IMG/VR virus record: IMGVR_UViG_3300025888_000011
Coordinates: 32,001-96,000 of that record
Source of the DNA: a virus
Reading direction: 5' to 3' (one strand)
Length of the DNA: 64,000 nucleotides
The notes under the pieces were generated by a model. It did no database searches. It was not told the DNA's origin and saw nothing but the letters and a program-made list of their open reading frames with translations. Each line of letters starts with the position of its first letter. Position 1 is the stretch's first letter. A program made the translations under genes and the position numbers. Shown piece after piece: positions 16,322 to 58,474 of the stretch.

Positions 16322-16442
16322 TGACTTGTAAGGATAATTAATAAAGGAGTTGATACTTTTGATTGTAATTTCATTAGGAACGCACTATTTAAATTACATA
16401 TAATATAATGATATAAAATAAATTTATAGGAGGAATTAGTAA

Positions 16443-17891
16443 ATGATAGTGGGTATTAAAAAAGAAAAGATAAGAAAGATTTTTACAGACAATTTACCAA
16501 GAAAAGAAAAATTATTTGATTGGTTCAAGAGTATTGGATACAAGGTAAGATTTATTTATGATGATATTGAAGGTGAGGTAGATATAATTGGATATGATGG
16601 AAAGTTTCTATCTATAACATATAATAATAAAATATTAGAAATAAGTACAGGGAATCTTCAAAAATGTCGATTAGGCAAATTATTAAATAAATGCACAGAT
16701 GAATTTAAAATAGAAATCAGTACTCAATTTATAGATGACAAAAGAAATATTACAATTATTAATAAAGAAAATAGAAAAGACAGACAAGGACGTAACTTTA
16801 AATGGTATCAATATAAGTGTAATAAATGTGGATTTTGTGATGATAGAAGTTGGATTGAAGAGAGTTCATTATTAAATGGACAAGGTTGTTCATGTTGTCA
16901 TGGAAAGACGGCAGTGCTTGGAATAAACACAATTTGGGATACTGATAGGATTATGTGTAATTTAGGAGTTAGTGAGGAAGATGCCAAGACACATACTAAA
17001 TGGAGTAATGTCAAAGTTGATGTAATTTGCCCTGATTGTGGTAGAATAAAAAATGTGTCTTTAGATAAGATTCACAGATTTCATTCAATAGGATGTGTTT
17101 GTAGTGACACTATATCTTATCCAGAAAAATTAATGTTTAATATATTAGAACAATTAAATGTTGAAAACACATATCAATTAACTAAAAAGACTTTGATGTG
17201 GTGTAATAAATATAAATACGATTTTTATTTTAAAATAAATAACAAAGAATATATTATTGAAACACATGGTAGCCAACATTATAAAAATAAATTTACTATA
17301 AAAAAAATTAGGTCATTAGAAAATGAAATAGAAAATGATAAAAACAAAAAAGCCTTAGCTTTAGCAAATGGAATAAAAGAAGAAGATTATATCGTGATTG
17401 ATTGCAGATATAGTGAATTAGAATTTATACGAAATAATATAGTAGACAGTAAATTAAATGAGATATTTGATTTATTAAATATAGATTGGAATAAAGCTGA
17501 AGAATATGCATTAAAGAATTTATGTAAAAAAGCATGTGAGATGAAGAGAGATAATCCTAATATACTTACAGTAGACATATGTAAATTTTTTAAATTAAGT
17601 AAAACAACAATAATAAGGTATCTAAAAAAAGGAAGTAAGATATGGGAATGGTGCAATTATGACCCAAAAGAAGAACAGAGGAAATCAGGATTGAGGGTAA
17701 GTAGTTTAATAAGTAAAAAAGTAGAGGTATTTAATAAAATGGGTGAGTCATTAGGCATTTTTCCAAGTTGTGCTGAATTAGAACGACAATCTGAAAAGAT
17801 ATTGGGTGTAAAATTAATTAATCAAAATATATCAAAAGTATGTATTCATCATGCACATACACATAAAGGGCTTATATTTAAATATGTTTAA
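16443..17891 (+). CDS. free-standing homing-endonuclease-like protein (Zn ribbons, PD-(D/E)xK-like core, NUMOD1-like tail)
   Basis: CxxC motifs, SYPE...YDFY...IIETHGSQH, C-terminal GIFPS.AELER helix. Confidence 0.75.
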   Translation: MIVGIKKEKIRKIFTDNLPRKEKLFDWFKSIGYKVRFIYDDIEGEVDIIGYDGKFLSITYNNKILEISTGNLQKCRLGKLLNKCTDEFKIEISTQFIDDKRNITIINKENRKDRQGRNFKWYQYKCNKCGFCDDRSWIEESSLLNGQGCSCCHGKTAVLGINTIWDTDRIMCNLGVSEEDAKTHTKWSNVKVDVICPDCGRIKNVSLDKIHRFHSIGCVCSDTISYPEKLMFNILEQLNVENTYQLTKKTLMWCNKYKYDFYFKINNKEYIIETHGSQHYKNKFTIKKIRSLENEIENDKNKKALALANGIKEEDYIVIDCRYSELEFIRNNIVDSKLNEIFDLLNIDWNKAEEYALKNLCKKACEMKRDNPNILTVDICKFFKLSKTTIIRYLKKGSKIWEWCNYDPKEEQRKSGLRVSSLISKKVEVFNKMGESLGIFPSCAELERQSEKILGVKLINQNISKVCIHHAHTHKGLIFKYV

Positions 17892-17940
17892 AATAATTAA
17901 ATTAACTATAATAATATAATTCATAAGGAGAGAGCAAACA

Positions 17941-18123
17941 ATGACAAGAGAAGAATTTATAAAAATAGCAATATTAAAAGGATATACATTAGAGTATGCA
18001 GAAATATTAGCAGACATGGTTGTAAAATCTAAAAGAACTTATCAAGAAGGATATTTAATATGTCTTAAATGTCTTGAAGATGGTGAATTACTTGGAGAAT
18101 GGGAAGTAAATAATGATATTTAA
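17941..18123 (+). CDS. hypothetical protein
   Basis: 60 aa, AAGGAG RBS. Confidence 0.6.
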   Translation: MTREEFIKIAILKGYTLEYAEILADMVVKSKRTYQEGYLICLKCLEDGELLGEWEVNNDI

Positions 18124-18156
18124 ATATATCAAAACAATATAAGGAGGTAATTAATA

Positions 18157-18345
18157 ATGGATTTATCACATAGAAGATATGCAGTAAATTGTTTTATACA
18201 GAATTTTAGTAAAGAAGAATTAACTTCTCTTGTAAATGAGTTATCAGATATGATATTAAATAGCGAAGGAGAAGCAGGATACGATAAAATCTTATTAAAA
18301 ATATTAGGTACAACAATAAAAAGAACACCAAAATTAGAAAAATAA
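18157..18345 (+). CDS. hypothetical protein
   Basis: 62 aa, AAGGAGG RBS. Confidence 0.65.
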   Translation: MDLSHRRYAVNCFIQNFSKEELTSLVNELSDMILNSEGEAGYDKILLKILGTTIKRTPKLEK

Positions 18346-18588
18346 ATATATATAAAAAGGAGAAATGATAAAAATGAAAACAGATGCAATATCAAAATTT
18401 GAAGAGAATATAAATGGAGAAAAGATTGAATTATTTAAAAGTAGAGTTGAAAAAACTCATGAAAGTTGTGGTAAAAGTTATATGGTAAGGATTATAGTGA
18501 GAGATTAATAAGTAAATAATATAAATTTAGAATAGTGTAAAAGCTATTCTATTAGTCATAATATAATATAAAAGGAGAGTCAAAATAA

Positions 18589-20571
18589 ATGAGCGAAGAA
18601 ATAACAATATATAATTCAACAAAGGAACTAAAATTACAAAAGATAGATAGTTTGTCTCAATTAGCAATTAATAGATTAACTGAGTTTAATAAGAATCCAC
18701 TTGGAGAAAAATATGAATTAGCAATAAGAGAATTAGTTAAATACATATTATTTTATACTAATAAAGAAAAGATAATAGCATTCCCCATGTCGACAGGTAG
18801 TGGGAAAAGCACAATCACAGAGTTATCAATGGCTTATATGTACAATGATGACCTATTTAAAAACTATTGTGGGACTATTATATTAAAACTTACTAGAGAT
18901 GATTGTAATTCAACTGCTATCAATATAAATAAGTATGCTAATAAAGAAATTGCTTATGCTTATCATGGAGGAGATGTTGAAAATGGTAAGGCGAATGATA
19001 TAACCATTGAAGATTTACAGACTTACCCAATACTAATAATGACACACGAGGGTTATAAATCATTTGTAGACAGGAAAGAAATTAAGACTAAAAGTAAAAG
19101 AAAAAAGATAGATATAAATGATATTTACGAATGGACAGATAAAAGAATAGATAAATTAACTGTAAATTACAATATATTTACTAGACAGAGATTAATTATT
19201 GACGAGGAAATATCAAACGTAGAAACTGTAGCAATCAATATAAAAACTATAAATATTATTGAGAATGCCATTATGAATATGGGAAACAATGATTTATATG
19301 ATGTTTTTATGAGTTTTATTAACTCGATAAAGAAAGAGTTTATAAAATCTTATACAGAGAAAGCTAATAAACTTAATTTTGTTTATTTTGAGAATATAGT
19401 TAAACCTGAAGGAATGGATGAGGCTATATATGATTCTAAGGATTATAAAGCTAGAGAATGCTATATAAATATATTAAATTTATTAGAACATGGTGGTTAC
19501 GTTAGATATTCAACTGAATTAGAAAATAAAAGTATAACAACATTCAAATACATAGATATTTATAATCCTAGATTTGCTAAATTACAATTAGATGCTACAG
19601 CAGATGTAAATAAATTATATATATATAATCCACATTATGAAGTTAAGGAATTACCTGAATTCAAAACATATAAGAATACATATTTACATATATATGATAA
19701 AGTAACTGGTTCAAGAAGTTCATTAATTGAAAATTTCGATTTAGGAATGCTTCAAGCATGTATAAAAGACATAGGAGAAAAACTTCTCAAAGGGGAAAAG
19801 GGGCTTATAGTATTTAATAACAAACAATTGGAATATGGATTCTATGAGGAAATTCAAGGTACAGATTTAGTAGGAAGAGTATGGATTACACATTATGGAT
19901 TAACTACAGGAAGTAATCAATGGAAAGATTATGATAAAGTATTTGTATATGGATTAAATATAATGAGTGATGCTATATACCCTATATTATATCACTGTAA
20001 TAGTATGGAAGAAGACTTTAATAAATATGACACTATGTTAATTCCAAAGAAAGGCTCAAGAGCATATGCAGAAACTAAATTTGAAGAAGTTAGAGTTGGG
20101 TTAGTCTCCTCAGCAATAATACAAGCAATTAATAGAATTAAAATAAGAAAATATTGTGACGGTGATACACCCGAAACTCATATTTATATGCTCAATAGCG
20201 ATAAGAGTGTTGATAATATAATAAAAGGAAGCATGAAAGGCATTAATATTCTATATGATTGGCAATTAGATTTTACTCCACCAATAAAAGAACGTAAATC
20301 TAAAGTAGAAGATAATACACTAAAAATAATAAACTATTTAAAATTTCTAATTGAAAATCCTGAGTCAAAATTTGTATGTGAGTTAAAGAATGAGAATATA
20401 TTAACAGATAAAGGAATTAAGAAAAAGGATTTAAGAGAAGGACTTGATTTTGCTAATAGACCTGCGTTTAATCGAGCATTAGATAAACCAATTTTCACTC
20501 AGTTTTGTATTGATTATAATATAGATATGAGTAATAAAAATAACAAATACATAGGCATGACAATAAAATAA
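18589..20571 (+). CDS. SF2 (DEAD/DEAH-like) helicase-domain protein
   Basis: PMSTGSGKST, ILIMTH, LIIDEE, LDATA, GSN, IQAINRI motifs. Confidence 0.75.
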   Translation: MSEEITIYNSTKELKLQKIDSLSQLAINRLTEFNKNPLGEKYELAIRELVKYILFYTNKEKIIAFPMSTGSGKSTITELSMAYMYNDDLFKNYCGTIILKLTRDDCNSTAININKYANKEIAYAYHGGDVENGKANDITIEDLQTYPILIMTHEGYKSFVDRKEIKTKSKRKKIDINDIYEWTDKRIDKLTVNYNIFTRQRLIIDEEISNVETVAINIKTINIIENAIMNMGNNDLYDVFMSFINSIKKEFIKSYTEKANKLNFVYFENIVKPEGMDEAIYDSKDYKARECYINILNLLEHGGYVRYSTELENKSITTFKYIDIYNPRFAKLQLDATADVNKLYIYNPHYEVKELPEFKTYKNTYLHIYDKVTGSRSSLIENFDLGMLQACIKDIGEKLLKGEKGLIVFNNKQLEYGFYEEIQGTDLVGRVWITHYGLTTGSNQWKDYDKVFVYGLNIMSDAIYPILYHCNSMEEDFNKYDTMLIPKKGSRAYAETKFEEVRVGLVSSAIIQAINRIKIRKYCDGDTPETHIYMLNSDKSVDNIIKGSMKGINILYDWQLDFTPPIKERKSKVEDNTLKIINYLKFLIENPESKFVCELKNENILTDKGIKKKDLREGLDFANRPAFNRALDKPIFTQFCIDYNIDMSNKNNKYIGMTIK

Positions 20572-20791
20572 TATATAATCGTAACGTTTTTACTCTTATA
20601 AACTCTATTAGAGGGAAATGTTACGATGAATAAATTCAACAGATTATAAAGAAAGTTCAAAACAAGGAAAAGCTAATTCGATGAACCTGAATTACCTTAA
20701 CTTTCACGTGCAGTGGATCGTTCAAGTTGTCATTACTTTTTCAATTTTAATAACAACTATAATAATATAAATATAAAGGAGATGATTAATA

Positions 20792-21385
20792 ATGAATAAA
20801 TTAATATTTGGAGTAGGTTTTAATAGTGGTGATAAATATACAACTAGTATAAATAGAAAAATAACAAAACAATATTCGTGTTGGCACGATATGATGAGAA
20901 GGTGTTATTCTGAAAAATATCATATTAAATATTCAACATATAGTGATTGTTCGGTCTGTAAAGAATGGCATAACTTTCAAACTTTTGCAGAGTGGTATGA
21001 TGAAAATTTTTATATATTAGAAAATTGGAATATGGCTTTGGATAAAGATATCCTTGTTAAAGGTAATAAAGTATATTCACCTAAAACATGTATATTTGTT
21101 CCTCAAAATATAAATTGCTTATTTATTATAAAGCAAAGAAAGGTTAGTAATTTACCAATAGGGGTTAGTAAAGAAAAAGGAAGAAGTAAATATAAGTCAT
21201 TATGTAGCGATGGCAAAAAGAAAATTAAATACTTAGGATTCTTTGATACTCCAAAGAAAGCTTTTGATGCTTATAAAGTATTTAAGGAAAACTTAGTAAA
21301 AGAAATTGCGGATACATATAAATTATTAATCCCACAGAGGTTATATAATGCTATGTATAAATATGAAATAGAAATAACTGATTAA
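20792..21385 (+). CDS. HNH/AP2-type homing-endonuclease-like protein
   Basis: WHDMMRRCY...VCKEWHNFQTF...LDKDIL...YSPKTCIFVP; YLGFFDTP AP2-like end. Confidence 0.75.
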   Translation: MNKLIFGVGFNSGDKYTTSINRKITKQYSCWHDMMRRCYSEKYHIKYSTYSDCSVCKEWHNFQTFAEWYDENFYILENWNMALDKDILVKGNKVYSPKTCIFVPQNINCLFIIKQRKVSNLPIGVSKEKGRSKYKSLCSDGKKKIKYLGFFDTPKKAFDAYKVFKENLVKEIADTYKLLIPQRLYNAMYKYEIEITD

Positions 21386-21627
21386 ACTAATACATAATCT
21401 TCAAAATTCACTTAGGTAAATAGTTTATCTAAGTGAATTAATCACAAATTTAATATTATAATTTCAATATATTTTGCTATTATAATAGAAAAGAACAGGA
21501 TAATATTATAAAGTTTTTCTAAAAGAATGTAAAAGAGGGTATAAAATAGAATATTAAACATAGTATGTATAACTCCTCAAGTAGTTGGTATAACAAGGCT
21601 TAGGACAAGTCATGTGATTGATTAGTA

Positions 21628-21636
21628 TGTGGATAA
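21628..21636 (-). promoter_or_regulatory. DnaA box
   Basis: TGTGGATAA = perfect TTATCCACA, adjacent to the iterons. Confidence 0.75.
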
Positions 21637-21644
21637 CTAATTAT

Positions 21645-21726
21645 TGTGATTAATTAACTTGTTAGTTGTGAGTGATTAACTTGACTTTTGTGAGTGATTA
21701 ACTTGACTTTTGTGATTAATTAACTT
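21645..21726 (+). repeat. origin iterons, 4 x 16 bp at 22-bp period
   Basis: TGTGA(T/G)T(A/G)ATTAACTT at 21645, 21667, 21689, 21711; an inverted copy lies at 21431-21446. Confidence 0.9.
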
Positions 21727-21803
21727 ATGTTATAGTTGTGATTAAAACGTATGTTGTTGATTGTGTGAATTATGTTAATAACTTATAGAGGAGATTATAT
21801 AAT

Positions 21804-22955
21804 ATGAGTAATGTAGTAACCAAAGGTACTGCTAAAGTGTTTAAATACAACGCAGGAATAGAAAGTATTGTAGATGGTGGAACGGTTCAGTTACCTTTTA
21901 TATCTGAATATAAAGGTGATAGAAGAACTGCAATGGAATATATATGGTTTACTAAAGATGCAAGTGGAAATCTTTGCAAAAGAGGTATATACGTGAGTGG
22001 GCATGGTCAATATGGAGTCCCAACACTATATGATTCAGATGTATATATGGCATTACAAGATATATTTCTACGTAAAAAAACTGTGAATGGTATATGCGAG
22101 TTAGAATTTAATTCTTTGTCCGTAGATTATTTAAATATTGAATTTTCTATGAATGAATTAGCTAGAGAAATGGGTTATATATTACCAATAGGAAAGTCAA
22201 CAAGAGAACTCTTAAAAAAATCAATAAAAACATTACTAGCAACAACAATGTTTTCTTTATATGAAGGTGGAATTTATGACATAAGGCATAAGCAATATGT
22301 GACTAAAAAAGAGGTAGGATATCATTTATTAGAAGAATATGGAAATGAAGTTACTACCGAGGACGAAGAAGTTATTGTTGATATTATGCATATTAGATTA
22401 AGTAAATTCACTTACTTACAAATAGTAAACGATTATAAACTTTTTTATAATAAAAACAAATATAGGAAACCTAAAAATAGAATAGCAAGAAAAATTTATA
22501 TTATGGCTCTACAATGGAAGGGCAATAAAGACTTTGCTTATGCTAAAATAGATACTTTAATTGAGAAGATACCTATGATAGAAGAGGATAAGAGATATAA
22601 AAAAAGATATATTAAAAAAGCACTAAAAGCATTAAATGACAGTGGAATTATCAAGGCTAATTGTGATAAGAATGATTTAGTGTATTTTGATTTTAGAGAG
22701 CAAAAACAAATAGATGAATACAAGAATAAATATAATAAATATTCAGATATAACAACTAAATTATACGATATGGGATTTAATATGCTAGAAGTTGATGAAT
22801 TAGTGGATGTTGAAAGAATAAGATTTATACAAGCATTGCTAAGATATCTAGATTTTCAAAAACCTTTAAAACCTAAGAGATATTTTTTGAAATGTTATAA
22901 TGAGAATATTGAAATTGATAGAGGTTTCTATAGTGAAAATAGTTTAGTACTGTGA
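21804..22955 (+). CDS. plasmid-type replication initiator protein
   Basis: GVPTLYDSDVYMAL...FSMNELAREMG...LKKSIKTL wHTH initiator pattern; flanked by iterons on both sides. Confidence 0.8.
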   Translation: MSNVVTKGTAKVFKYNAGIESIVDGGTVQLPFISEYKGDRRTAMEYIWFTKDASGNLCKRGIYVSGHGQYGVPTLYDSDVYMALQDIFLRKKTVNGICELEFNSLSVDYLNIEFSMNELAREMGYILPIGKSTRELLKKSIKTLLATTMFSLYEGGIYDIRHKQYVTKKEVGYHLLEEYGNEVTTEDEEVIVDIMHIRLSKFTYLQIVNDYKLFYNKNKYRKPKNRIARKIYIMALQWKGNKDFAYAKIDTLIEKIPMIEEDKRYKKRYIKKALKALNDSGIIKANCDKNDLVYFDFREQKQIDEYKNKYNKYSDITTKLYDMGFNMLEVDELVDVERIRFIQALLRYLDFQKPLKPKRYFLKCYNENIEIDRGFYSENSLVL

Positions 22956-27998: not shown

Positions 27999-30900
27999 AT
28001 GGTAAATCGTCAATTATTTACAATGAAATTTAAGTCCACGAGACTAAAAAAATATAAGTACGATATAACTATCAACTATCAAGAGGCTTTAGACAATAAT
28101 GAAATAATAGCTCTAGCAGATTCTCAAATACTTAGGACGATAAGAGATGTTATTGCTGAAAAAGGAGGTGATTCTAGTAGAATATTAGATAGAGAATTAT
28201 TAGAAGAATTTTATCATGAAATTAATATAATAAGGAGAAAGAAAAGAAATACAACTGAAGACACTTTAAATAATGTTATGAAAATAAAAGAAATAAAAGA
28301 TAAAATAACCAACATGTGCTTCGTACCAGAATACATAACTATTGTAATAGAAGACATAAGTCATTATGATTATTTATATGAGAATGGACTAACACTTAAC
28401 GGAGTAGTTTATTATAGGCTCTCAGTATCGGCAGGGCAAGGGAGAGTATCTACTGTAGTATTTTGTTCAAGTGATATATTAGAGACGGTAAATACAATAT
28501 TAGACAACGGTAGGAACAAGGAACAAGTATTCTCACCTTCTAAATTTAATGCATATAAAGGTACATATAGTTCAGCAACAAAACCTGTAACAACTCCTAG
28601 ATTTTGTGTAGTACCTGATTTTGAATCGCCTACTACATTTGATGTTAATTGGGTTACAGAAACAAAAGGAGAACTAGACGATGAGATTAAACCAAAAACA
28701 ATAACAAAGAATTTTAATAGATGGGACGGAATGGGAATTATTTCTCCTACATTTGCCAAACAATGGGCAGATGATTTAGAGTTAGATTACATTCCTGCTG
28801 AATTTTGCACCCGTCAAAGTTATTTAAAAGGTATGTTTGGGGTGTTTGATTTTCACGAGTTTTGTGAGATTAAGAATAATGGAAATTATATAACTAAATC
28901 AGTTTATAAAGATAAAGAGGGCAATGATATAGAAATTGATTTAAGGGATTATGATATGATTGTTACGGAAGGACAATTTAAACTTTGGAACTCATTTAAT
29001 AGTTTAGAACAATATAAAAAAAATTGTGAAACTAATAATCTTAAATGGGGAGTAGCTTTATATACAGATAAAGAATTAAAAAATAATTTAAAATATAATT
29101 ACCAATTTTTGCAATCGTTAAATATAAAATCTAAAGATGTTCCAAAATTATGTGAAGAATTTATTAACTGGATACAAGGAGTTAGTACAGATGATGTATG
29201 GTATTCAATATTGTTTTTAATGGGTGTAAATGTAACAGAAACCTCTATAATGAATTATTTAAGAGATAGTAAAAACTATTGGGTAAAAAGTTTAATTATA
29301 AATCATGATTTAATAAATGATAAATATGTAAAACAAAAGATATATAATCTTATAAAAACTAAAATTGACAAAGGGTGTATGGGAAGTATAATCTTAACAG
29401 GTAATAATCAAACTTTAGTGTCAGACCCTTATGCTATGATGGAGTATGTGTGTGGCATGGAGGTAAAAGGATTGTTAGGGAAGAGAAAATACTACTCAAA
29501 CTATTGGAACGAAAGAGGAGTAACGGAGATATTAGGAACAAGACCACCACTGACTTATAGGTCAGAATGTTTAAAGATGGAATTAGAAAACACAGAAGAG
29601 CAAAGATATTGGTATAAACATATGTATGGTGGAATTATTGTAAATGTTCATGGATGCGAAACAGATAATTTTGCAGGTAGTGATAAACTTAATGTCACCA
29701 TTATATAGTAATATATAATGTAAAACTTGGTGAACCTATAAATATAGGGTGTGTCGAAAGATGCTAACGGTGAAACTCTAAGGTTAAAGTGTGTGTTAAA
29801 TTGATAATATAATAATATAAAAGGAGGTGAAATAATGAATGATTATTACATATATGAATGGTTTAATATAGAAACGGATGAAGTTTTTTATGTAGGTAAG
29901 GGCAAGAAAGGAAGACATAAGATAATTACAGGGAGGAATCCTTATTTCACAAATTATTATAATAAATATAATTGTGAAAGTAGAATAGTGTTTAATAATT
30001 TAACAGAATTAGAAGCATTTGAATTAGAAATTAAAACAATAAAAAGATATAAAGAAAATTGTCTTTGCAAGTGTAATTTAACAGAGGGAGGAGAACAACC
30101 TCCGACATTATATGGAAAAGATAATGCTATGTATGGAAGACCTTGGTGGGATGATAATACGCCTATAGAAAAAATTGAAAAATGGAGAAAAAGTAGATAT
30201 TCTTTCGGGTGTGGTGAATTAAATTTACAGTTTGGGATTTCACCAAAAGATAGAATGGATAAGGATACATATGAAGGATGGAAAGAAAAACATATTGGTT
30301 TAGGTATAGGAGAAAATAATTCTCAATATCAAGTGTCTCCGAAAGATAGAATGGATGAGAAAACTTATCTTCAATGGAAGGAAAATCATAAATTTATAAT
30401 TGGAGATAAAAACCCTAATGCAAAATGCGTAAACATGTATGATATTAATAATAAATTATATAAAAGTTTTACATACATAGGTGACTGTGTTAAATTTCTA
30501 ATTGATAATAATATTACAATATTCAAAGAGAATACAATAAGAACAAAAATTAGAAATTCATCATCAGAAACTATTCCTTTTGAGGGATATTATTTTAAAG
30601 TAATATAAAACAAACACACATTTAACTATGACAATACCGTGCCAAGCCCTAACAATATAGTTTATTCTATGTTAGTGGAAGGTGTAACGACTAAATTGGG
30701 TTGTATAACGCCCTAAGAGGGTAAATTTAGGCGAAAATCCTTATCCCGTAGTGCCAAGCATCCTATTTAATTGAGGATGAAGAGATAGTCTAGTCCGACT
30801 TCGTTAAGAAGTGTTAAAGTATTACGAAAGTAACGGTGTACACGTTTGATTTTGACTTTTTGTCAACAACTTCCAATTCTGTGATAGTAAATTCAACTTA

Positions 30901-31969
30901 TGAAAATGAATTACCAATAGTCTATGAAGCACCGAAACCTAAAAAAATAATATTTACAAATGATGATTTATTTAATGCAGATAAATTTACATTTGGTTCT
31001 ATAATAGGGGCTATAACTAACAAAAGCACTACAGGGCATGCAATGTTAACTCATTTAAAAGATACATATGGTATAGAAAGTAGAGAGTATACAACAGTAT
31101 TAGACCGAATTAAGATGTGTACTAAATTGCAAAGTGCCCAAATTGATAAGGCTAAGATAGGAAAAGAGGTAAAAGGGATTCCTAAAACATGGACAGATAG
31201 AAGATATATAGAGAGTTTGGAAATTGATAAAAAAGAGAAAGATTTCTTAAAGTCAATTATGATGGACAGACACCCATACTTTTTTATACATTTATATCCT
31301 GATACAAAGAGAAAATATAAAAAACATATAGAAGGATATAATATATCGTGTGAACATAAATTTGGTATGAATGTTGAAGAGTTAATTTTAAAAGCAGATA
31401 AAACTAAGGAAGAAAATGAATATATAAAAGCATATTATGAATATATGCCTGTAATTTACACTGATGGAGTTGTAAATTCTATATGTAGATATATTGAAAG
31501 TGTTGATTTTAAAATTAGAGAAAAAGTAAGCACTAAATCAGAGGACACTCATTCAATTCTTATGAGAAACGAGAATATTGAGGATGAAGAAGTTTATCAA
31601 GAGATATTAAAAAAATATAAAGTATTTAAAAAAGAATTAAAAAATAATAACAATGTAAAGAATTCAAGTAAGAAACAGAAGTATGATGAGACATTATCAC
31701 AAGAAGTTAATGGAATTTATAAAAAATTTAAAAGTGAAATGGATAAAGAATGCCCTAATACATATGAATTAGTTGATTACTTAATTAAAATATTTTATGT
31801 TGAGTTTCCAAGTGCAAATAAGGATTTATTATGGAATACATATGGTAAATATATATATGATAATTTAAAAAGTAAGAATCAAAATCCTGTATTATTCCCT
31901 TTTCCAAATAAAAAAGGAGACATAGAATATCTTAATCAAAAATTTTTACTCAAGGAGGTAATAATTTAA
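27999..31969 (+). CDS. YonO-like single-subunit (RdRP-like) RNA polymerase, join(27999..29684,30845..31969)
   Basis: SAGQGR, DGMGIIS, KG, RPP motifs; splicing restores AGSDFDFD catalytic triad; SPbeta-like synteny with HU and head genes. Confidence 0.8.
29685..30844 (+). mobile_element. group I intron with internal homing endonuclease
   Basis: P1 exon GUGAU/GUCAC with U.G at the splice site; AACGACUA and AAGAGAUAGUC (P7); terminal G 30844; in-frame junction. Confidence 0.9.
29835..30608 (+). CDS. intron-encoded GIY-YIG homing endonuclease
   Basis: YYIYEW...FYVGKG...R...E...NLTEGG; repeated GExN..SPKDRMD modules; looped out by GTGTGTT/AACACAC pairing. Confidence 0.85.
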   Translation: MNDYYIYEWFNIETDEVFYVGKGKKGRHKIITGRNPYFTNYYNKYNCESRIVFNNLTELEAFELEIKTIKRYKENCLCKCNLTEGGEQPPTLYGKDNAMYGRPWWDDNTPIEKIEKWRKSRYSFGCGELNLQFGISPKDRMDKDTYEGWKEKHIGLGIGENNSQYQVSPKDRMDEKTYLQWKENHKFIIGDKNPNAKCVNMYDINNKLYKSFTYIGDCVKFLIDNNITIFKENTIRTKIRNSSSETIPFEGYYFKVI

Positions 31970-33181: not shown

Positions 33182-33257
33182 GGCGATGTGGCGAAATTGG
33201 TATCGCAACGCACTTGTAATGCGTAGATTGAAGATTCGAGTTCTTTCATCGCCTCCA
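33182..33257 (+). tRNA. tRNA with UGU anticodon (Thr by anticodon), atypical identity
   Basis: 76-nt cloverleaf: GGCGATG/CATCGCC, GCGA/TCGC, ACGCA-CTTGTAA-TGCGT, TTCGAGT loop, encoded CCA. Confidence 0.85.
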
Positions 33258-42349: not shown

Positions 42350-42444
42350 TGTAAATATATTTTGATATAGAAGATTAGATTCTTAGTCTTCTATAATGAG
42401 AGTATATAAGAATTAAATAAAGTCATAATAATATAAAAAATATG

Positions 42445-42473
42445 TTGACAAATTAAGTTGAAAATGGTAATAT
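42445..42473 (+). promoter_or_regulatory. sigmaA promoter
   Basis: TTGACA-17-TAATAT with extended TG. Confidence 0.65.
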
Positions 42474-42479
42474 TATATT

Positions 42480-42558
42480 AAGGATAGAATCATATAAAGG
42501 AGTCGACACTTTTATATGATTTGATAAGTGTGGGTTTTATCTACCGTCACTCTTCCTT
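42480..42558 (+). ncRNA. structured leader RNA (three-stem junction) upstream of endonuclease
   Basis: AAGGA/TCCTT closing stem, 13-bp hairpin with AGTCGACA loop, third hairpin complementary to the downstream RBS region. Confidence 0.6.
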
Positions 42559-42616
42559 GATTTTTACATATAATAATCACGGTGGATAAAATAATATAAA
42601 AGAGGTAGATAATAAA

Positions 42617-44041
42617 ATGATAGACTTAGAACAAATAGTAAAAGTTAGATGGAATGGTTGTACAAGAAAATGGTATGAATCTAAAGGATATATTTATACA
42701 AAGCAAAATGAATTTTTTGATTGTAAGTTAGAGGATTTACAAAAGGGTTCAACAGTAAAAGTTTTAGTAATATGTGATTATTGTGGAGAAGAATTTCCAA
42801 AAGAATATAGAAATTACTTTAAAGAAAGAAAAATAGTTGAAAAAGATTGTTGTAAAAATAGAAAATGTATGGTTAAAAAATCTAAAGAAGTTAATTTAAA
42901 AACTATTGGTGTAGAAAATCCTATGCAATTAAAGGAAATAAGTGAAAAATCAGGTGTGAATCATAGAACTCCTTTTAATGAAGTAGTTTTATTATGTGAA
43001 GAAAAAGGACTTTTATTATTAAGTAAAGAGAGTGATTATAAAAACGATAGAACTCCAATTTTTATAATATGTAATAAACATGAATCAGAAGGAATACAAG
43101 AAACTAAATTTGCTAATATAAAAAAGAATAAAACTTGTTGTTTTTTCGGAGGGCATGATTTAATAGGATTAAGTAAAAGATTAAATGGGGAAGATGTTTA
43201 TAATGATTTCATAAAACATGGATTAACTCCATTATTTAAACCAAATGAATACAAGGATAATCAAACTATATTACCATATATATGCGATAAACATAAAGAT
43301 AAAGGAATACAATACAGAGCATATATGAATATAGACAATAATGAAGGATGTTCATATTGTGCAAAAGAGAGAATGAAAGAAAAAATGAGGTTTGATGAGA
43401 AATATGTTTTTGATAATTTGATTAATAAGGGATTAATACCGATTGAGGGCGAAAGATATATTAATAGAAATACTCCTATAAAATACAGATGCATTAAACA
43501 TCCAAACGTTATACAACACATTATATTTGGAGGATTCTTTAATACAGAATGTGCTTGTGATTATTGTAGAATGGAGAAAAGTTTATACAGTTTAAATAGA
43601 TATTTTAGAAGTTCTTTAAGTTTTTGGAGAAAAGAAGCTGAAAATAACTGTAACCATATGTGTATTTTAAGTGGAGTAAAACAATATGAAGTTCATCATT
43701 TATATTCCTATAATTCAATAATAAAAGATGTTGTTGATGAATTAAAGTTAGATTTCAAAAATGTTAAAGATTATTCTGAAATAGATTTATTAAATATAAG
43801 AAATAAAGTAATAGAAAAACATAAATTATCAAAAGGAATATGTTTAAATACTAAATTGCATATTATTTTTCATCAAGTTTTTGGAAAATTAAATAATACA
43901 AAAGAACAATTTGAGGAATTTAAAGAGAGCTATTATAATGGCGAGTTTGATAATGATTTAGAAGAAGAACTAAAATCTTACAATTCTATAAGAAGGTTAA
44001 ATGAAAACAGAATAAAGAGTGATTTTAATGAAGCTATGTAA
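42617..44041 (+). CDS. HNH homing-endonuclease-like protein with repeated Zn modules
   Basis: CDYCG; three C.KH...C..C repeats; EVHH...GICL..KLH..FH..FG..NN. Confidence 0.8.
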   Translation: MIDLEQIVKVRWNGCTRKWYESKGYIYTKQNEFFDCKLEDLQKGSTVKVLVICDYCGEEFPKEYRNYFKERKIVEKDCCKNRKCMVKKSKEVNLKTIGVENPMQLKEISEKSGVNHRTPFNEVVLLCEEKGLLLLSKESDYKNDRTPIFIICNKHESEGIQETKFANIKKNKTCCFFGGHDLIGLSKRLNGEDVYNDFIKHGLTPLFKPNEYKDNQTILPYICDKHKDKGIQYRAYMNIDNNEGCSYCAKERMKEKMRFDEKYVFDNLINKGLIPIEGERYINRNTPIKYRCIKHPNVIQHIIFGGFFNTECACDYCRMEKSLYSLNRYFRSSLSFWRKEAENNCNHMCILSGVKQYEVHHLYSYNSIIKDVVDELKLDFKNVKDYSEIDLLNIRNKVIEKHKLSKGICLNTKLHIIFHQVFGKLNNTKEQFEEFKESYYNGEFDNDLEEELKSYNSIRRLNENRIKSDFNEAM

Positions 44042-52211: not shown

Positions 52212-52247
52212 AATAATTAAATTAGATAGAAAAGGAGATTAATAAAA

Positions 52248-52865: not shown

Positions 52866-52890
52866 TATAAAAAGGTGGTGAAACAAATAA

Positions 52891-53307
52891 ATGGCTACCA
52901 CATTTCAAGATATATATAATAAATTCTTATTTCAAGTAAGAGATTTAGAGTTTGATTTATTAGAAGATGCTGAATTAGAACAACTACTATATAATTATTT
53001 AGAAAATGCTACAGTAGAATTCAAACAATGTAGAAAAGATTTAAATGATTTTGATAAAACTTTAGAGCAGTTTAATGTAAATTTATCTATTGAGGAAATA
53101 TATATCGTTTCTTTAGGAATGGTATTACATTGGTTAAGACCTAAAATCAATAGAGAAGAACTATTAAAGCAATCTATAGGTGATAGAGATTATAAATTAG
53201 CATCTAATTGGCAAACTTTAGGTAAATTAATGGATAGAGAAATAATGATACAAAATAATCTTAAAAACTACATATCAAAATATCAATATATTGCTAGTGA
53301 AATCTAG
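52891..53307 (+). CDS. putative head-tail adaptor
   Basis: TTFQDIYNKFL...FNVNLS.EE..I...M...W; position. Confidence 0.55.
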   Translation: MATTFQDIYNKFLFQVRDLEFDLLEDAELEQLLYNYLENATVEFKQCRKDLNDFDKTLEQFNVNLSIEEIYIVSLGMVLHWLRPKINREELLKQSIGDRDYKLASNWQTLGKLMDREIMIQNNLKNYISKYQYIASEI

Positions 53308-53325
53308 AAAGGAGGATTTTTTATT

Positions 53326-54366
53326 ATGGGAAAGTTTGATTTATTTAGAAAACTAAATACAATAAATGGTAGTACGTCACAAGAAGTAATCGTAAATAAT
53401 ATAGAAAAAGAATTTGACCAATATATAAAAAATACTCCTAATTCTTATATTTCTACTAGATATAATGATGTAAGTAATGTAGAAATTAAATGTACATTAC
53501 AAGATGCAGGTTTTAATGATAAGAAAAATGGTGATGAGAAAATACTTTGTACTTATTTATCTTGTGATTTAAAACAAGGTGATATTATAAAAATAGAAAG
53601 TAAAATATATCTTATTACATTTCAAGAAGATAATACTATTAAAACACATAATACATATATTGTAAGACCTTGTAATAGTCAATTAAAGTTTAAATATAAT
53701 GGAGTTATTTATTCCATTCCCGCAATTATTACGAATCAAAGTCCATATTTAGTTGGAGTTGCTGATGGGAAATATTTTGATGTAGGAAACGTGAAATTAA
53801 GTTGTTCTCTTGGAATAAATTTATTAAACAAGGATGTAGTTAAAGTTATATTTAGAGGAATGAGATTTATTCTTTATTCAAATGGAGTAAGAATTGCTTA
53901 TAAAATAACCTCAACAGATACTATTTCAAAAGAAGGATTATTAGCACTTGTATTAGAAGAAAGTAACGACTTAAAAATTGAGGATGTGGGAGATGTGGCT
54001 TTTAACAATTATGAAACTAATACCGAACTAGAAACACCTGTGATTCCAACACCAACATATAAGATAGTTAGTTCTACAGGGGATGTTAATTATTTATTTA
54101 ATGGAAGTGTTAGAACATTTAAGGTTGTCAGTGCAGATGGTACAACTATAACAGATAACTCATTTACTTTTACTCTAGGTCAAAGTTCAACTAATCCTGC
54201 TATGACACCAATAATGCTTATAACTCTCATAGATAATAAAACAACCTTAGCTGTGCGTTTAACTCCACATGTTACAAATAAAGGATATTTCCTTTTAATT
54301 GCCACAGATTCTTTAGGTAATATAACTAGTCGAGAATTACGAGTGAAGGGAAATTATGATATATAA
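53326..54366 (+). CDS. putative head closure/neck protein
   Basis: LKQGDII...CN..LK motif, beta-rich C-terminus; position. Confidence 0.5.
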   Translation: MGKFDLFRKLNTINGSTSQEVIVNNIEKEFDQYIKNTPNSYISTRYNDVSNVEIKCTLQDAGFNDKKNGDEKILCTYLSCDLKQGDIIKIESKIYLITFQEDNTIKTHNTYIVRPCNSQLKFKYNGVIYSIPAIITNQSPYLVGVADGKYFDVGNVKLSCSLGINLLNKDVVKVIFRGMRFILYSNGVRIAYKITSTDTISKEGLLALVLEESNDLKIEDVGDVAFNNYETNTELETPVIPTPTYKIVSSTGDVNYLFNGSVRTFKVVSADGTTITDNSFTFTLGQSSTNPAMTPIMLITLIDNKTTLAVRLTPHVTNKGYFLLIATDSLGNITSRELRVKGNYDI

Positions 54367-54395
54367 ATAATATAAAAGATTAAAGGAGTATTTAT

Positions 54396-54554
54396 ATGAA
54401 AATATTTAATATTAAACAAGCAGATATATTCATTAAGAACTCTGCTACTCCAATAGGAGTAAATACAGGGAATAAATTTAAAGTGTTCATAGAATTTGAA
54501 GAAAACCAAATATTTAAAGATTTAATGGTGCGATGGCTAAATAAAGAATTTTAG
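54396..54554 (+). CDS. small DUF5659-like protein
   Basis: 52 aa MKIFNIKQADIFIKN...VFIEFEE...LMVRW; AAGGAG RBS. Confidence 0.6.
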   Translation: MKIFNIKQADIFIKNSATPIGVNTGNKFKVFIEFEENQIFKDLMVRWLNKEF

Positions 54555-54602
54555 CTATTTTTTATTGCCCAAAATAATACGATTTAAGGGAGGATTTATA
54601 AT

Positions 54603-55730
54603 ATGGGATTGAGTATTAACAAAATATCATTTAAAAAATGGTGTATGGATAACTTATCAAAAAAAGAAGCAAACAATATTTTAGACAGATGGGATTATGA
54701 ATTAAATAATAAAAAACCTGATGAAATTGGATATAGTTCAAAAGGAGAAAACAATAAAGGATATTGGTTTAAGTGCTTAGAGCATCTTGAACATGGAAGT
54801 GAATTAAAAAATATTAAGAATTTCGTATATGGACATAAGAAAAGTATAGATTGTTACCAATGTAATTCTTTTGCTCAGTGGGGAATCGACAATATATGTA
54901 GTGATTTCTTAGAAAAATATTGGGATTATAATAAAAATGATAAACTAGAACTAAATCCTTGGGAAATATCTAAATGTGTATATAAGGAAGTTTGGATATT
55001 TTGTAAAAACAAAGATAAGCCTCATCATGGAAGCTACATTATAGGATGTGGTTATTTTGTAAAAGGTAGACGTTGTCCTTATTGTAGTCATAGAGGTGGA
55101 AAAACCCATCCATTAGATAGTTTTGGTCAATACATAATAGATAATCATGGAGTTAAATTTTTAATTGACATATGGTCTGATAAAAATAAGGTATCTCCTT
55201 TTGAATATGCACCAGGAAGTAATTATAAAGTTTGGTGGAAATGTTTAGATAATAAACACGATGATTATTTAAGAGAGATAAGCAGTTCAAATAGATTTGA
55301 ATATCGTTGCCCTGACTGTGTTCAAGAAAGAAATGAAAGTTTACTTGAAGAAAAGACTAGACTATATTTAAATGAGTTGGGATATGATATTTTACATGAG
55401 CGTCATTGCACTATTATCCCTAAAAATCCTAAAACAAAAATGCCTTTACCTTTTGATAATGAAATAAATATAAATGGAATAAAACTTATTTTGGAGGTTC
55501 ATGGAATTCAGCATTACAAATTATGTGGATTTCATATTTTAGCATCTAAACATAATAATACAACACCAGAGTATGAATTTCATATGCAAAAAGTAAGAGA
55601 TAAATATAAAAGTTATGTAGCATATAGAAATGGTTATAAGTATATTGCTATTCCATATACTTCTGACAATAAAAAGGAAAAATATAAAACTTTAATTGAT
55701 AATAAGATTAAAAAAATACAAAATAAGTAG
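54603..55730 (+). CDS. zinc-ribbon homing-endonuclease-like protein
   Basis: three WD..KN..P.....S...VW(W/F)KC repeats; PFDNE...LEVHGIQHY core. Confidence 0.8.
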   Translation: MGLSINKISFKKWCMDNLSKKEANNILDRWDYELNNKKPDEIGYSSKGENNKGYWFKCLEHLEHGSELKNIKNFVYGHKKSIDCYQCNSFAQWGIDNICSDFLEKYWDYNKNDKLELNPWEISKCVYKEVWIFCKNKDKPHHGSYIIGCGYFVKGRRCPYCSHRGGKTHPLDSFGQYIIDNHGVKFLIDIWSDKNKVSPFEYAPGSNYKVWWKCLDNKHDDYLREISSSNRFEYRCPDCVQERNESLLEEKTRLYLNELGYDILHERHCTIIPKNPKTKMPLPFDNEININGIKLILEVHGIQHYKLCGFHILASKHNNTTPEYEFHMQKVRDKYKSYVAYRNGYKYIAIPYTSDNKKEKYKTLIDNKIKKIQNK

Positions 55731-55740
55731 GTGAAATAAT

Positions 55741-56283
55741 TTGAGCAACGTTTCCATGAAATTTCGTAATATAACAAAAATAAAAAATGGTATTATTAAT
55801 TTAATTTCACACGACAATAAAATCAAGAGGTACGTCTTATATCTTACGAGAGAGCCTTTAAATTTGTCAGCTTATGATACATCTAGTATTTTACAAGACC
55901 AACCAGATGTTGAAATTGATTTGGTTTTTGGAGACCCACATATTTATGGTTCAAGTTTTAATGATGTTGTATTAAGTGCATCACAAGTTACAATATTTGT
56001 ACATAGATATATGGGAGACCTTACTGGGAAAGCACTTGGCATAAATACTCTAATAGTGGATATAGTAACTCCTTTGGAATTCAATATTTTAAATGAAACT
56101 GAAGACCGTAATTCTGCCATAGCATGTTCTATATGCGATTTGGTCGACGATACATCAATTGGAGTAGGAAAAGCAAGTGTTGTTAAATATACTGAGTCAA
56201 GATACAGTCTTACTGATAATAATTATGAGATTCTTAGTTTATTCATAGAAGTTTCCACATCAAATTTAAGAGTTAATAAATAG
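55741..56283 (+). CDS. putative tail completion/terminator protein
   Basis: 180 aa, position before the tail tube. Confidence 0.45.
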   Translation: MSNVSMKFRNITKIKNGIINLISHDNKIKRYVLYLTREPLNLSAYDTSSILQDQPDVEIDLVFGDPHIYGSSFNDVVLSASQVTIFVHRYMGDLTGKALGINTLIVDIVTPLEFNILNETEDRNSAIACSICDLVDDTSIGVGKASVVKYTESRYSLTDNNYEILSLFIEVSTSNLRVNK

Positions 56284-56320
56284 AATAAATAAAGTAAATA
56301 GAACAAGTAGGTGATTATTT

Positions 56321-57091
56321 ATGTTAGAGAATATTTTAAATGAACCATATGAATTAATTGAAATAGACAAAGAAACAAATGAAATAAAAAATGAAATATA
56401 TATTTATCCTATTATTATTAAAGATTATTTTAAATTTCAAATATTAACAAGATTATTATATGTGAGTAAAGGTAATTTTTCAGAAACAGAAATTCCTTTA
56501 TTAGATTTAATTGTATTTCATTTAATTGATGTTGAATTAACTGACGAACAAAATATTATTAATAGAAATGATAGAATAAAAGAATTAGAACAAGTGTTTT
56601 CAATAATTATTAGAAAAGAAATACATTTTTATGAAGATAAAACACATTATCAATTTATTTCAGATGATAAGAAAAGTATAATACATAATTTAAATTACAA
56701 TGAAATTAGAACAATAATAATGAATCAAAATTTAATGTTTGAGCCTAAGATTTATAAAAATAAATTAGTGCAAGAATGGGCAGATTCAACTTTAAATGCA
56801 AAAATGAAAAATCAGCCCAAGATTGGAATGGAAGAGATGTTATCAACTATTTCTGTGAAAACAGGTAAACATTATTGGGATTTAAAAGAATATAGTATTT
56901 ATCAAATCTATAGTGATTTTTATAGATTAAGAAAAGACAAAAATTATGATACAAGTTACGCAATGAAATTACAAGGAGTTGATATAAGTATAGAAGATTT
57001 TGCAGAATGTCTAGATTTATATAAAAATCCTTATGATAGTGTATTTGTTGATGATGGGAAATTAGACCAAATAAAAAATGTTTGTAAATAG
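56321..57091 (+). CDS. hypothetical tail-region protein
   Basis: 256 aa, IYPI.IKDY...IR.IIM.QN...SIYQ. Confidence 0.65.
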   Translation: MLENILNEPYELIEIDKETNEIKNEIYIYPIIIKDYFKFQILTRLLYVSKGNFSETEIPLLDLIVFHLIDVELTDEQNIINRNDRIKELEQVFSIIIRKEIHFYEDKTHYQFISDDKKSIIHNLNYNEIRTIIMNQNLMFEPKIYKNKLVQEWADSTLNAKMKNQPKIGMEEMLSTISVKTGKHYWDLKEYSIYQIYSDFYRLRKDKNYDTSYAMKLQGVDISIEDFAECLDLYKNPYDSVFVDDGKLDQIKNVCK

Positions 57092-57159
57092 AACTAATTA
57101 TGGTTTTATTTAACATATATAAAATAAAATAATATAAAATACAAGGAGGAATAATTAAT

Positions 57160-58317
57160 ATGATAGCAGATATTTTTAAAGTACTATTAATTGATAATGC
57201 AACTGGTGAAACATTTGCAAGAACAACATTGGAATCAGCTTCAATAGAAATAAAAGAAGAGTCAAACGAGGTGGAAGGTGGAGGTTCAGTTTATGCTATA
57301 ATTCATAATGGAAAAAAAGAAACTATCGCATTGTCAGATGTAGAAGTCGACTTTGGCATTATAGCTAAACAACTTGGAGTAGACGCAGTTACAGGAGCAA
57401 CAATAGCTTATGCTATGCCTAAATTTTATACAGTAGAAACAGGTTTAATAATAACATTAGATAATGAACCATTAGTAGGTTCAATGTCTATATTTACAGA
57501 AGCAGGAGTTCCTATATTGGCAGTGGGTATTACATCAACTGTTGGAAAAGTAGTTACTCTTGCAACAGGTGTAGTAGGAGACCAAATAGAAGTAAGAACA
57601 TATAAATATCTTACTGGAGTGACAACTCAGTCTATAGAAATAAACAATACAAAGTTTGCAAAAGGTGTTACTGCTGTACTTGAAACAATAGAGATAACTC
57701 CTGAAGAAGTTCCTATAAATATCATTCAATTTATCTTTGATAGTTGTGCTTTTGATGGTGGATTTAAAATTGATACAAAGATAATAAGATGGTTGCACAA
57801 ACTATCTTAGCCTCGTACATTCAGAAATGAGTGTAGGACACAGATTTAATTGCAGGTAACTCCCAAGAGCCTTACACCACAATATAACTGAAAAGATTAT
57901 ATGAAGGTACGAAAGTAGAAAAAACGTAAGGATGGATATAAGGTTAAATCCTAAGTATCTGATAATATTCTACATATTATAAAACGGATGTTCATGCAGG
58001 TAAGCACCTAATGAGTAGAAATACTACGGTGAAACTTCAACGACTATCCTTGAAATAGGAGTAAAGCCACAAGCGATTGGTGGAAGAAAAAGTCTGCCCT
58101 TAACAAATAATGTTGAAGGTGAAGAAATAGTCTACTCACGTTGAGAAATCAAGTGGTCACTTAATTAACTAGAGTGACATTTATGGAGTAGCGTTCATGA
58201 GTAAATATAAAGGCAAAACGTGACGCAGTAAAGCATGACATTGGACTTAAAGTGTTGAAAAAGAGAAGTAAGGACTCAGTTGGCAAGATTCTTAGAATTC
58301 CAATAGCAACAGTATAA
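57160..58317 (+). CDS. major tail tube protein, intron-split (approx. join 57160..57780,58213..58317)
   Basis: T/G/V-rich structural protein; 34-codon 3' exon AKRDAVKHDIGLKV...ILRIPIATV follows the intron core. Confidence 0.65.
57781..58212 (+). mobile_element. group I intron without ORF; splice sites uncertain
   Basis: TACATTCA-GAAA-TGAGTGTA P2, AATTGCAGG, TCAACGACTAT and AAGAAATAGTC (P7), P3 CAGATTT/AAGTCTG. Confidence 0.8.
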
Positions 58318-58335
58318 AATAAAATAATATAAATA

Positions 58336-58364
58336 TTGACATTATAGTAAAAGTGACATATAAT
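58336..58364 (+). promoter_or_regulatory. sigmaA promoter
   Basis: TTGACA-17-TATAAT. Confidence 0.75.
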
Positions 58365-58370
58365 AGAATT

Positions 58371-58431
58371 AGAGGATAGATAAGGAGTAGCTCTTCATAT
58401 CGAAAACACATTTCTCCAAATGTGTTCCTCT
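58371..58431 (+). ncRNA. structured leader RNA upstream of endonuclease
   Basis: AGAGGA/TCCTCT closing stem, GGAGTAGCTCT hairpin, AACACATTT-CTCC-AAATGTGTT hairpin with anti-SD loop. Confidence 0.6.
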
Positions 58432-58474
58432 GTTTTACAAATGGAGGAATAATTATTTGGAGGTAATTAATAAA

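Follow-up and report, generated by a model that had tools for sequence, protein, structure and literature searches.

The stretch of DNA analysed here, called the window throughout, comprises 64,000 nucleotides (bases 32001-96000 of the 141,152-bp viral contig IMGVR_UViG_3300025888_000011, 26.7% G+C) and carries three endonuclease genes, starting at 16443, 42617 and 58475, each of which is headed by a promoter of its own and a leader RNA. The leader is a real feature and a member of a broad, covarying RNA family: copy 58, which heads the last of these genes, clearly belongs to a family found in more than 30 distinct phage and metagenome sequences, with conserved structure, covarying stems, a shared layout and a third stem-loop (P3) whose loop covaries with two sites flanking the Shine-Dalgarno (SD) sequence of the gene behind it. 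By a modest balance of probability the element would be a promoter-proximal regulatory leader RNA of about 55-80 nt, folded as a three-way junction and forming a branch of the int-alpA motif, which represses translation through pairing of the P3 loop with these sites. Expression of homing endonucleases must be low or brief, and to our knowledge little is known about the control of free-standing endonucleases outside the T-even phages.

Leader copies in the phage genome

The features of the three loci in the window (copies 16, 42 and 58) are as follows.

16293..16321, + strand: sigma-70-like promoter of copy 16 (TTGACT, 17 nt, TG-n-TATAAT)
16330..16361, + strand: degenerate leader, copy 16, with AAGGAUA and the P2-like hairpin AAAGG-AGUUGAUA-CUUUU kept
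16443..17891, + strand: endonuclease gene, 482 aa; phrog_4538 match, nuclease families 9084/559, weak NUMOD1
42445..42473, + strand: sigma-70-like promoter of copy 42 (TTGACA, 17 nt, TAATAT, TG upstream)
42480..42558, + strand: three-way junction, copy 42; P1 AAGGA/UCCUU, junction strand J1/2 UA, -20.6 kcal/mol, z = -2.8
42535..42547, + strand: P3 loop, copy 42, TTTTATCTACCGT; antisense to sites A and B
42579..42591, + strand: site A, copy 42, ACGGTGGATAAAA; 13 bp with the P3 loop including one G-U pair
42604..42612, + strand: site B, copy 42, GGTAGATAA; 9 bp with the P3 loop, overlaps the SD GAGG, 5 nt before the ATG
42617..44041, + strand: endonuclease gene, 474 aa; N-terminus matches phrog_12131, C-terminal part HNH-like
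58336..58364, + strand: sigma-70-like promoter of copy 58 (TTGACA, 17 nt, TATAAT; 12/12 consensus)
58371..58431, + strand: three-way junction, copy 58; P1 58371-76 with 58426-31, J1/2 UA, J2/3 GAAAA, z = -2.9
58412..58421, + strand: P3 loop, copy 58, TTCTCCAAAT; antisense to sites A and B
58439..58449, + strand: site A, copy 58, AAATGGAGGAA; contains GGAGG
58455..58463, + strand: site B, copy 58, ATTTGGAGG; SD GGAGG 11 nt before the ATG
58475..59914, + strand: endonuclease gene, 479 aa; repeated CapR/treble-clef zinc fingers and a nuclease domain, phrog_559 E = 3e-104

The first-pass annotation of this DNA had placed a sigma-type promoter, AGGATA and a hairpin before each of the three genes, and its coordinates, including the ATGs at 16443, 42617 and 58475, are all correct. 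The pattern AGGATA N3-16 AAGGAGTNG matches three times in the window, against a mean of 0.00 in 100 shuffles, and no further intergenic match was found across the whole genome. The count of three copies holds for the window and not for the genome, which has five: outside the window lie copy 122 (L112:6836-6918) and copy 131 (L112:15019-15082), each before another endonuclease gene and each with a junction closed by P1, a P2 cap AAGG-(R)GUNG and a P3 loop antisense to the ribosome-binding site (RBS) region of its own gene. The promoter of copy 58 is the sole perfect TTGACA-17-TATAAT within 19 kb.

Four of the five genomic copies fold in isolation as a three-way junction of P1, P2 and P3. The two full three-stem junctions proposed at first pass are borne out by the folding energy of the isolated leaders (z = -2.8 for 42480-42558 and -2.9 for 58371-58432), while the z-scores of the whole leaders, calculated for each copy as well, are -4.7 for copy 58, -2.2 for copy 42 and +0.67 for copy 16. 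Within copy 42, P2 spans 42487-42522 with the loop A-GUCGAC-A at 42501-42508, and P3 about 42528-42551; within copy 58, P2 spans 58379-58401 with the loop UAGCU, and P3 58407-58424. The junction letters are UA, GAAAA and U in copy 58 and UA, UGAUAA and UC in copy 42, and copies 122 and 131 depart further. The minimum free energy (MFE) structure of the full copy-58 leader has both SD-like sites paired; in that of copy 42 the loop is engaged with site A and the true RBS is unpaired. Hammerhead, tRNA-like and pRNA readings of the junction were rejected, as their core letters do not fit and an Rfam match is absent, and the small leader open reading frames (ORFs) of copies 16 and 42 were dropped because no conservation was found.

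Copy 16 has, as was noted at first pass, only the first hairpin, and lacks both the 3' strand of P1 (P1') and an anti-RBS P3. It is a decayed remnant of a once complete leader, because its gene has a paralogue, 54% identical at the protein level, in the gene behind copy 131, the fifth copy (L112:15153-16622).

The proteins of the three window genes (474-482 aa) match phage homing-endonuclease families. To call the endonucleases unrelated, as had been done, is an overstatement inside this genome, because PHROG domain families recur as a mosaic among the five proteins and one pair is 54% identical; what stands is that pairwise alignment among the five fails for all but this pair, the proteins of 16443 and of copy 131. 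Megablast of two of the gene regions against phage records gave zero matches.

A covarying RNA family beyond this genome

Members were collected by pattern scans of viral, genome and metagenome collections, which returned many chance hits in coding DNA and about 30 distinct true members; a first, loose pattern had returned almost only chance hits. A 124-kb viral contig (L123, identical to L140) encodes a homologue of the 16443 and copy-131 proteins, and its leader, behind a consensus promoter, aligns with copy 58: UA, GAUA...UAGCU...UAUC and GAAAA are common to both, and the letters of P1 and P3 differ yet still pair. A covariance model built from nine members (R1) gives copy 58 a score of 56.8 bits (E about 1e-15), and a broader model (R2) 48.3 bits. 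R1 also matches L128 (49 bits) and L129 (33.5 bits), loci which had been fetched as protein relatives of the 42617 endonuclease and not by RNA pattern, and it reveals second copies in four contigs, which no pattern had selected and which vary at pattern-fixed positions.

Across 33 distinct sequences, 92.2% of the cells in stem positions are paired, compared with 71.7% after shuffling and about 45% with slid partners; the alignment was fitted to the covariance model, which favours structure, and the margin over the controls is large. Compensatory changes on both sides occur in 14 of the 15 base pairs. In most members P1 begins 5-12 nt downstream of the end of a -10 box. The stretch behind P1' is rich in T (5.6 per 10 nt against 3.0 expected), with at least four consecutive T in 15 of the 33.

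The leader is shared and portable, as had been proposed, and more than 30 distinct sequences precede several types of gene. Judged from first residues only, these include NUMOD4/HNH-type starts (MEEIWKD...), GIY-YIG starts (YIY..TN..NGK.Y.G) and non-nuclease genes such as a DUF1376-like one (MHYYQFHIGDY) in freshwater phage contigs, and the L283 member precedes a gene that is integrase-like by its first residues alone. Further endonuclease-like types, among them a phrog_4538 nuclease, also follow the module. The family spans Clostridia-type and Burkholderiaceae-type contigs; among 151 genomes sampled from the class of a Clostridia metagenome-assembled genome (MAG), with 37 candidates per genome scored, the seed genome alone matched. 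Together these observations point to a conserved, transferable RNA module that accompanies several catalytically unrelated endonuclease families in phages of distant hosts.

Some variants are of interest in their own right. At L330:1-410, L337, L339 and L204:466-539 the cassette of leader and endonuclease has tRNA genes immediately before it and lacks a promoter of its own, an arrangement which recalls segB in the T4 tRNA cluster. The L249 variant (minus strand, near 10484-10556 of the reversed locus) consists of P1, UA, P2 and GAAAA, has no P3, and continues after P1' with nine U; in appearance it is a simple terminator form of the motif. On the viral contig L108 the same promoter is followed by AGGATA, and AAGGAGTGG, 4 nt before the ATG of a NUMOD4/HNH gene, serves there as the actual RBS; the SD-like P2 cap may derive from a former RBS.

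The P3 loop and its two target sites

The start region of the downstream gene is laid out as site A, a purine-rich SD, site B and the AUG, sites A and B being direct repeats that lie 9-25 nt apart, often 11. In almost every member, site B either overlaps the SD or adjoins the AUG, and its complementarity to the loop equals that of site A. The proposed complementarity of the last hairpin to two sites further downstream, one of them at the RBS, was confirmed in copies 42 and 58, and the further claim that loop and targets differ between copies and stay complementary holds both in the window and across more than 30 relatives. Of 31 members, 16 have a P3 region with at least two perfect 6-mer complements in their own 40-nt start region, as against 1.9% of cross pairs, and 25 have at least one (12.5% of cross pairs); this comparison is conservative, because the cross pairs include close relatives. 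The mean energy of the duplex between P3 and target is -13.0 kcal/mol for own and -8.6 kcal/mol for cross combinations, and the copy-42 loop has an RNAduplex energy of -19.5 kcal/mol with its own target, the best among 31 targets.

The loops themselves are diverse, with ACCCAAC, ACCUAGCA, ACCUGACA, ACCGAC, GCUAAC, CUCCAUUC and AUUCGACC among others, each of them matched twice downstream. The set made up of the loop ACCCAAC and two GUUGGG sites is found before endonucleases of three different families (L133, L258 and L364; types read from first residues), so the sites go with the RNA module and not with the protein. A search with 8-mers for other genomic targets of the four P3 loops was set aside as uninformative in AT-rich DNA. 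The 58475 endonuclease has a candidate second start in the in-frame TTG at 58457, which follows the site-A GGAGG by 9 nt and would add six residues; with it, each antisense target site would serve a start codon of its own.

The palindromic P2 loop

A 6-nt palindrome is present in 12 of 21 distinct P2 loops, where 1.5 are expected. Six types occur (UAGCUA, UAAUUA, UUGCAA, UCGCGA, UCAUGA and GUCGAC), which differ from each other by symmetric double substitutions; the palindrome is flanked by purines and out of register with the P2 stem, and is therefore not merely a longer stem. In the window, copy 42 has GUCGAC, copy 58 only AGCU and copy 16 no palindrome, and copy 131 also lacks the 6-nt palindrome. 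Since most members share UAGCUA by descent, the independent events are few.

The kissing loop of the HIV-1 dimerisation initiation site (DIS) is an apical loop of 8-10 nt with a 6-nt self-complementary core and purine flanks. The P2 loop resembles it in its apical position and length, the self-complementary 6-mer, the purine flanks and variants that arise by symmetric double changes, and differs in that it belongs to a bacterial and viral system and is part of a three-way junction in a 5' leader, with a dimer that is so far a prediction from sequence. Loop-target covariation, two sites around the SD and a P2 palindrome that changes symmetrically are unusual for bacterial leaders.

Relation to int-alpA and other known systems

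On sequence comparison, the copy-58 family is best seen as a sister branch of int-alpA, a described but uncharacterised motif, because relatives of copy 58 match its model below the cut-off. Int-alpA (Rfam RF02996) was presented by Weinberg et al. (2017, Nucleic Acids Res 45:10811) as a candidate RNA without a function. The match of L157 (25.8 bits, the gathering cut-off being 35.8 bits) covers the full model and aligns P1, UA, P2, GAAAA, P3 with the loop aaCCuUu, CU, P1', uuuuuuu and AAgGG; other relatives reach 27.4-28.2 bits. The window and the whole genome give zero matches to RF02996 at E <= 10, and Rfam at gathering thresholds finds no family on the window save one tRNA and none on twelve member loci; relaxing the limit to E <= 10 around the three genes likewise brought up no family. 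A match to a described Rfam family had been named at first pass as the result that would remove novelty; this is the case in part only, the relatives scoring 25.8-28.2 bits and the window itself having no above-threshold match. Members of both kinds occur in one Burkholderiaceae MAG: its L367 member scores 38.2 bits to RF02996, above the threshold, and stands before an HNH-like gene with two loop-complementary sites, and the same MAG has two sub-threshold members of which one is of the copy-58 type.

The likeness extends to the order of the elements and the junction letters (J1/2 UA, J2/3 GAAAA, J3/1 CU), which are the same in the copy-58 type, to a pyrimidine-rich P3 loop, and to what comes behind P1', namely a U-rich tail and then a purine-rich site to which the P3 loop is complementary. 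In contrast, P2 has 7-14 bp and a palindromic loop here and 4 bp in int-alpA, and the present family is found in AT-rich Clostridia-type phages before homing endonucleases rather than before integrase or alpA, which, going by the family name, we take to be the gene neighbours of int-alpA. A functional study of int-alpA, or a description of the two-site layout and the palindromic loop, was not found in the literature searched, and the family described here gives a motif that has been without function since 2017 a concrete and testable candidate function.

The comparison with the C4 RNA of P1 and the CI RNA of P4, which the first-pass annotation had drawn, is fair as a functional analogy, in that one RNA addresses two sites on its own transcript. 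From the work of Citron and Schuster in 1990 and the P4 immunity literature, C4 and CI RNA are said to arise from the leader of their own operon and to be complementary to two sites of the transcript, one of them the RBS. The likeness is one of design only (a leader-encoded RNA, two sites on the own transcript with one at the RBS, and an adjoining constitutive promoter), and C4 models (RF01695) give zero matches at E <= 10 around the three window genes. C4 uses two loops for its two sites, whereas here one loop serves two direct repeats; in P4 the sites flank the RNA and cause termination, whereas here both lie downstream; and the controlled genes are antirepressors there and endonucleases here.

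The T-even-type endonuclease genes I-TevI, I-TevII, I-TevIII, segB and Aeh1 mobE are regulated by an RBS-sequestering structure that is bypassed by a late promoter (PMC2988022). In their long transcripts a segment further upstream pairs with the RBS, and a phage promoter is positioned to yield transcripts that escape; with the internal phage motif as candidate promoter, copies 42 and 131 would have this layout. The T4 elements, however, are simple local hairpins whose sequence is unconserved between genes, while the element described here has a conserved three-way junction, a host-type promoter of its own, a distant loop-site contact and two sites, and crosses phage groups.

A phage-wide motif and a possible internal start

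The 141-kb genome contains the 11-mer AATAATATAAA (extended consensus TAnAATAATATAAAA) 68 times, where about 3 per strand would be expected, and 67 of these copies share the orientation of the genes. Its usual place is 5-30 nt ahead of an RBS or immediately before a -35 box of host type, and it precedes each endonuclease promoter. The relevant positions and those of a polymerase region are the following.

14077, 23468, 29811, 38190 and 57128: examples of AATAATATAAA in the window
16275..16285, + strand: AATAATATAAA upstream of the copy-16 -35 box
16407..16417, + strand: AATGATATAAA, one-mismatch version of the motif, copy 16, 25 nt before the ATG
42427..42437, + strand: AATAATATAAA upstream of the copy-42 -35 box
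42590..42600, + strand: exact AATAATATAAA between site A and the RBS of copy 42, candidate internal promoter
58323..58333, + strand: AATAATATAAA upstream of the copy-58 -35 box
27999-29708 and 30836-31969, with 29835-30608 between: candidate RdRP-fold polymerase region

The ORF 27999-29708 has a Pfam RdRP (PF05183) match of 26 bits, above the cut-off, which suggests a YonO-like two-barrel single-subunit RNA polymerase. As the phage encodes such an RdRP-fold protein, AATAATATAAA is read as the promoter of this enzyme, which it probably is, judging from its position and strand bias. Copy 131 likewise has an exact AATAATATAAA between site A and the RBS. The sequence TTACATATAAT, common to copies 16 and 42, was also considered as a late-promoter box and rejected since it is not enriched before genes.

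Proposed mode of action and alternatives

In the reading that we favour, a module of promoter, leader and translation start region would travel before homing-endonuclease genes. The RNA would start a few bases after the -10 box, with P1 closing the junction before a U-rich stretch, and the P3 loop would pair with the two direct repeats that flank the SD and abut the start codon. This pairing would keep the 30S subunit off, so that leader-bearing transcripts are poorly translated. At copies 42 and 131, transcripts starting from the internal phage motif would lack the leader and could be translated, as in T4 I-TevI, segB and mobE. That the pairing represses rather than activates is likely for two reasons: nearly everywhere site B reaches into the SD or up to the AUG, and the copy-58 MFE structure pairs both sites.

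Several points weigh against this reading. The loop-site pairing crosses P1 and is a pseudoknot, which is outside the scoring of folding tools, and the copy-42 MFE structure, in which the loop takes site A and the RBS stays free, means that site A could be a decoy that keeps translation on. A consensus promoter on a cassette only to block its translation is unexplained by a purely cis model, and the internal phage motif is exact in only two of the five copies (42 and 131), has one mismatch in copies 16 and 122 and is absent from copy 58. Copies 42, 122 and 131 stay below significance with R1 and R2, even unfiltered (copy 42 scores 9.6 bits with R2), and as neither model detects them we do not claim statistical membership for them; their link to the family would lie in architecture and short motifs, namely the AGGAUAGA start, the P2 cap and the intermediate L129, which has P1 as in copy 42 (AAGGA/UCCUU) and a UCGCGA loop. 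Finally, a large part of the family came from search patterns in which GAUA, UAGCU and UAUCGAAAA were fixed, so that the invariance at these letters is partly imposed.

The strong private promoter would make sense if the RNA itself were the product, and a trans-acting, possibly dimeric antisense small RNA (sRNA) like P1 C4 or P4 CI, compatible with the cis model, is a lesser though still live possibility. Most transcripts would then stop at the U stretch after P1 to give an RNA of 60-80 nt, two of which would kiss through their P2 loops and clamp, with two P3 loops, sites A and B on read-through or leaderless mRNAs. The U-rich tail after P1' fits such an RNA, as do the int-alpA consensus, in which uuuuuuu follows a GC-rich 8-bp P1 and which Rfam types as sRNA, the out-of-register palindromic P2 loops with purine flanks as in retroviral dimerisation loops, the pair of target sites that always surrounds the SD, often with a spacing of 11 nt, and the fact that leaderless mRNAs started at the internal motif in copies 42 and 131 would retain site B. 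On the other hand, P1 is no longer than 5-7 bp in the window copies, for an intrinsic terminator longer tails would be expected, and the terminator scan does not call P1. Copies 58, 131 and 16 are without the 6-nt palindrome, the shared UAGCUA reflects descent in most members, and the loops are not strictly orthogonal, since two copies in one contig (L330) are identical in the P2 loop.

Taken furthest, this becomes a bivalent antisense clamp, in which an sRNA homodimer held by the P2 palindrome would grip the repeats around the SD with its two P3 loops and confer on each cassette a private, dosage-dependent translational immunity; we regard this as rather unlikely. If true, the dimer would amount to a novel regulatory design and offer synthetic biology a compact orthogonal part, and the same mechanism would explain the orphan int-alpA before integrase and AlpA genes of other mobile elements.

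The copy-42 fold with its open RBS could also be taken to mean that the leader is a 5' stabiliser or translational enhancer, whose junction shields the mRNA from 5'-dependent decay and whose P3-site A pairing frees the RBS and raises expression. That the structure begins at or near +1 and that P2 carries the SD-like AAGGAG, which recalls the STAB-SD and SP82 polypurine stabilisers of Bacillus, would agree with this. We nevertheless find it improbable, as site B, no less complementary to the loop than site A, lies over the SD or against the AUG in almost every member, the copy-58 MFE structure pairs both sites, and a mere stabiliser has no need of a covarying loop-target pair.

A sensor, either a riboswitch or a protein-binding aptamer, with a ligand or host factor recognised by the junction (the base of P2 together with UA, GAAAA and CU) and with the P3 loop and its sites as expression platform, holds as little promise. 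Conserved nucleotides do cluster at the junction and the stems covary as in many aptamers, and the motif occurs across phyla in Clostridia-type and Burkholderiaceae-type contigs, but the junction is small, its invariance is partly imposed by the search patterns and copies 122 and 131 have different junctions, while the downstream genes (endonucleases, DUF1376-like genes, and integrase or AlpA for int-alpA) have no metabolic theme.

Least probable is a role as DNA-level operators, repeated 6-9-mers bound by the endonuclease, or as an RNA guide or cofactor of the nuclease, the latter floated at first pass: I-TevI does repress its own promoter via an operator resembling its homing site (PMC2988022) and the repeats occur three times per locus, once inverted, but identical loop/site sets head different families (L133 NUMOD4-HNH, L258 GIY-YIG and L364 another type; L204 and L293), the stem G-U pairs and compensatory changes point to the RNA level, the sites are always on the SD and AUG and never on the promoter, and a cofactor for one nuclease family is unlikely because the module heads several endonuclease types as well as DUF1376-like and other non-nuclease genes.

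Genomic context

The parent contig is linear according to IMG/VR, with a CheckV completeness estimate of 74%, and nothing marks the element as part of a prophage, which the first-pass annotation had assumed. A peat metagenome, which may be the source, is the only sequencing run that contains the contig in full, and no RNA run with the contig DNA is listed. Genes run leftward before about 10,000 of the window and rightward afterwards. Two landmarks lie among them.

61734-63455: tail sheath gene, protein 34-37% identical to sheaths of phiKZ-like Pseudomonas jumbo phages
33182-33257: tRNA-Thr (UGU), from the Rfam scan

No closer tail-sheath relative than the phiKZ-like phages was found in the phage collection searched. 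A gap of about 520 nt without an ORF (57811-58330) separates the promoter of the 58475 endonuclease from a virion structural gene (57160-57810); for a group I intron at 57772-58217, an Rfam intron match is absent at E <= 10. A run of about ten G stands at about 14140-14160, straight after an SD-like GAGGAGG in a genome with 27% G+C, and could be a slippage tract or an assembly artefact.

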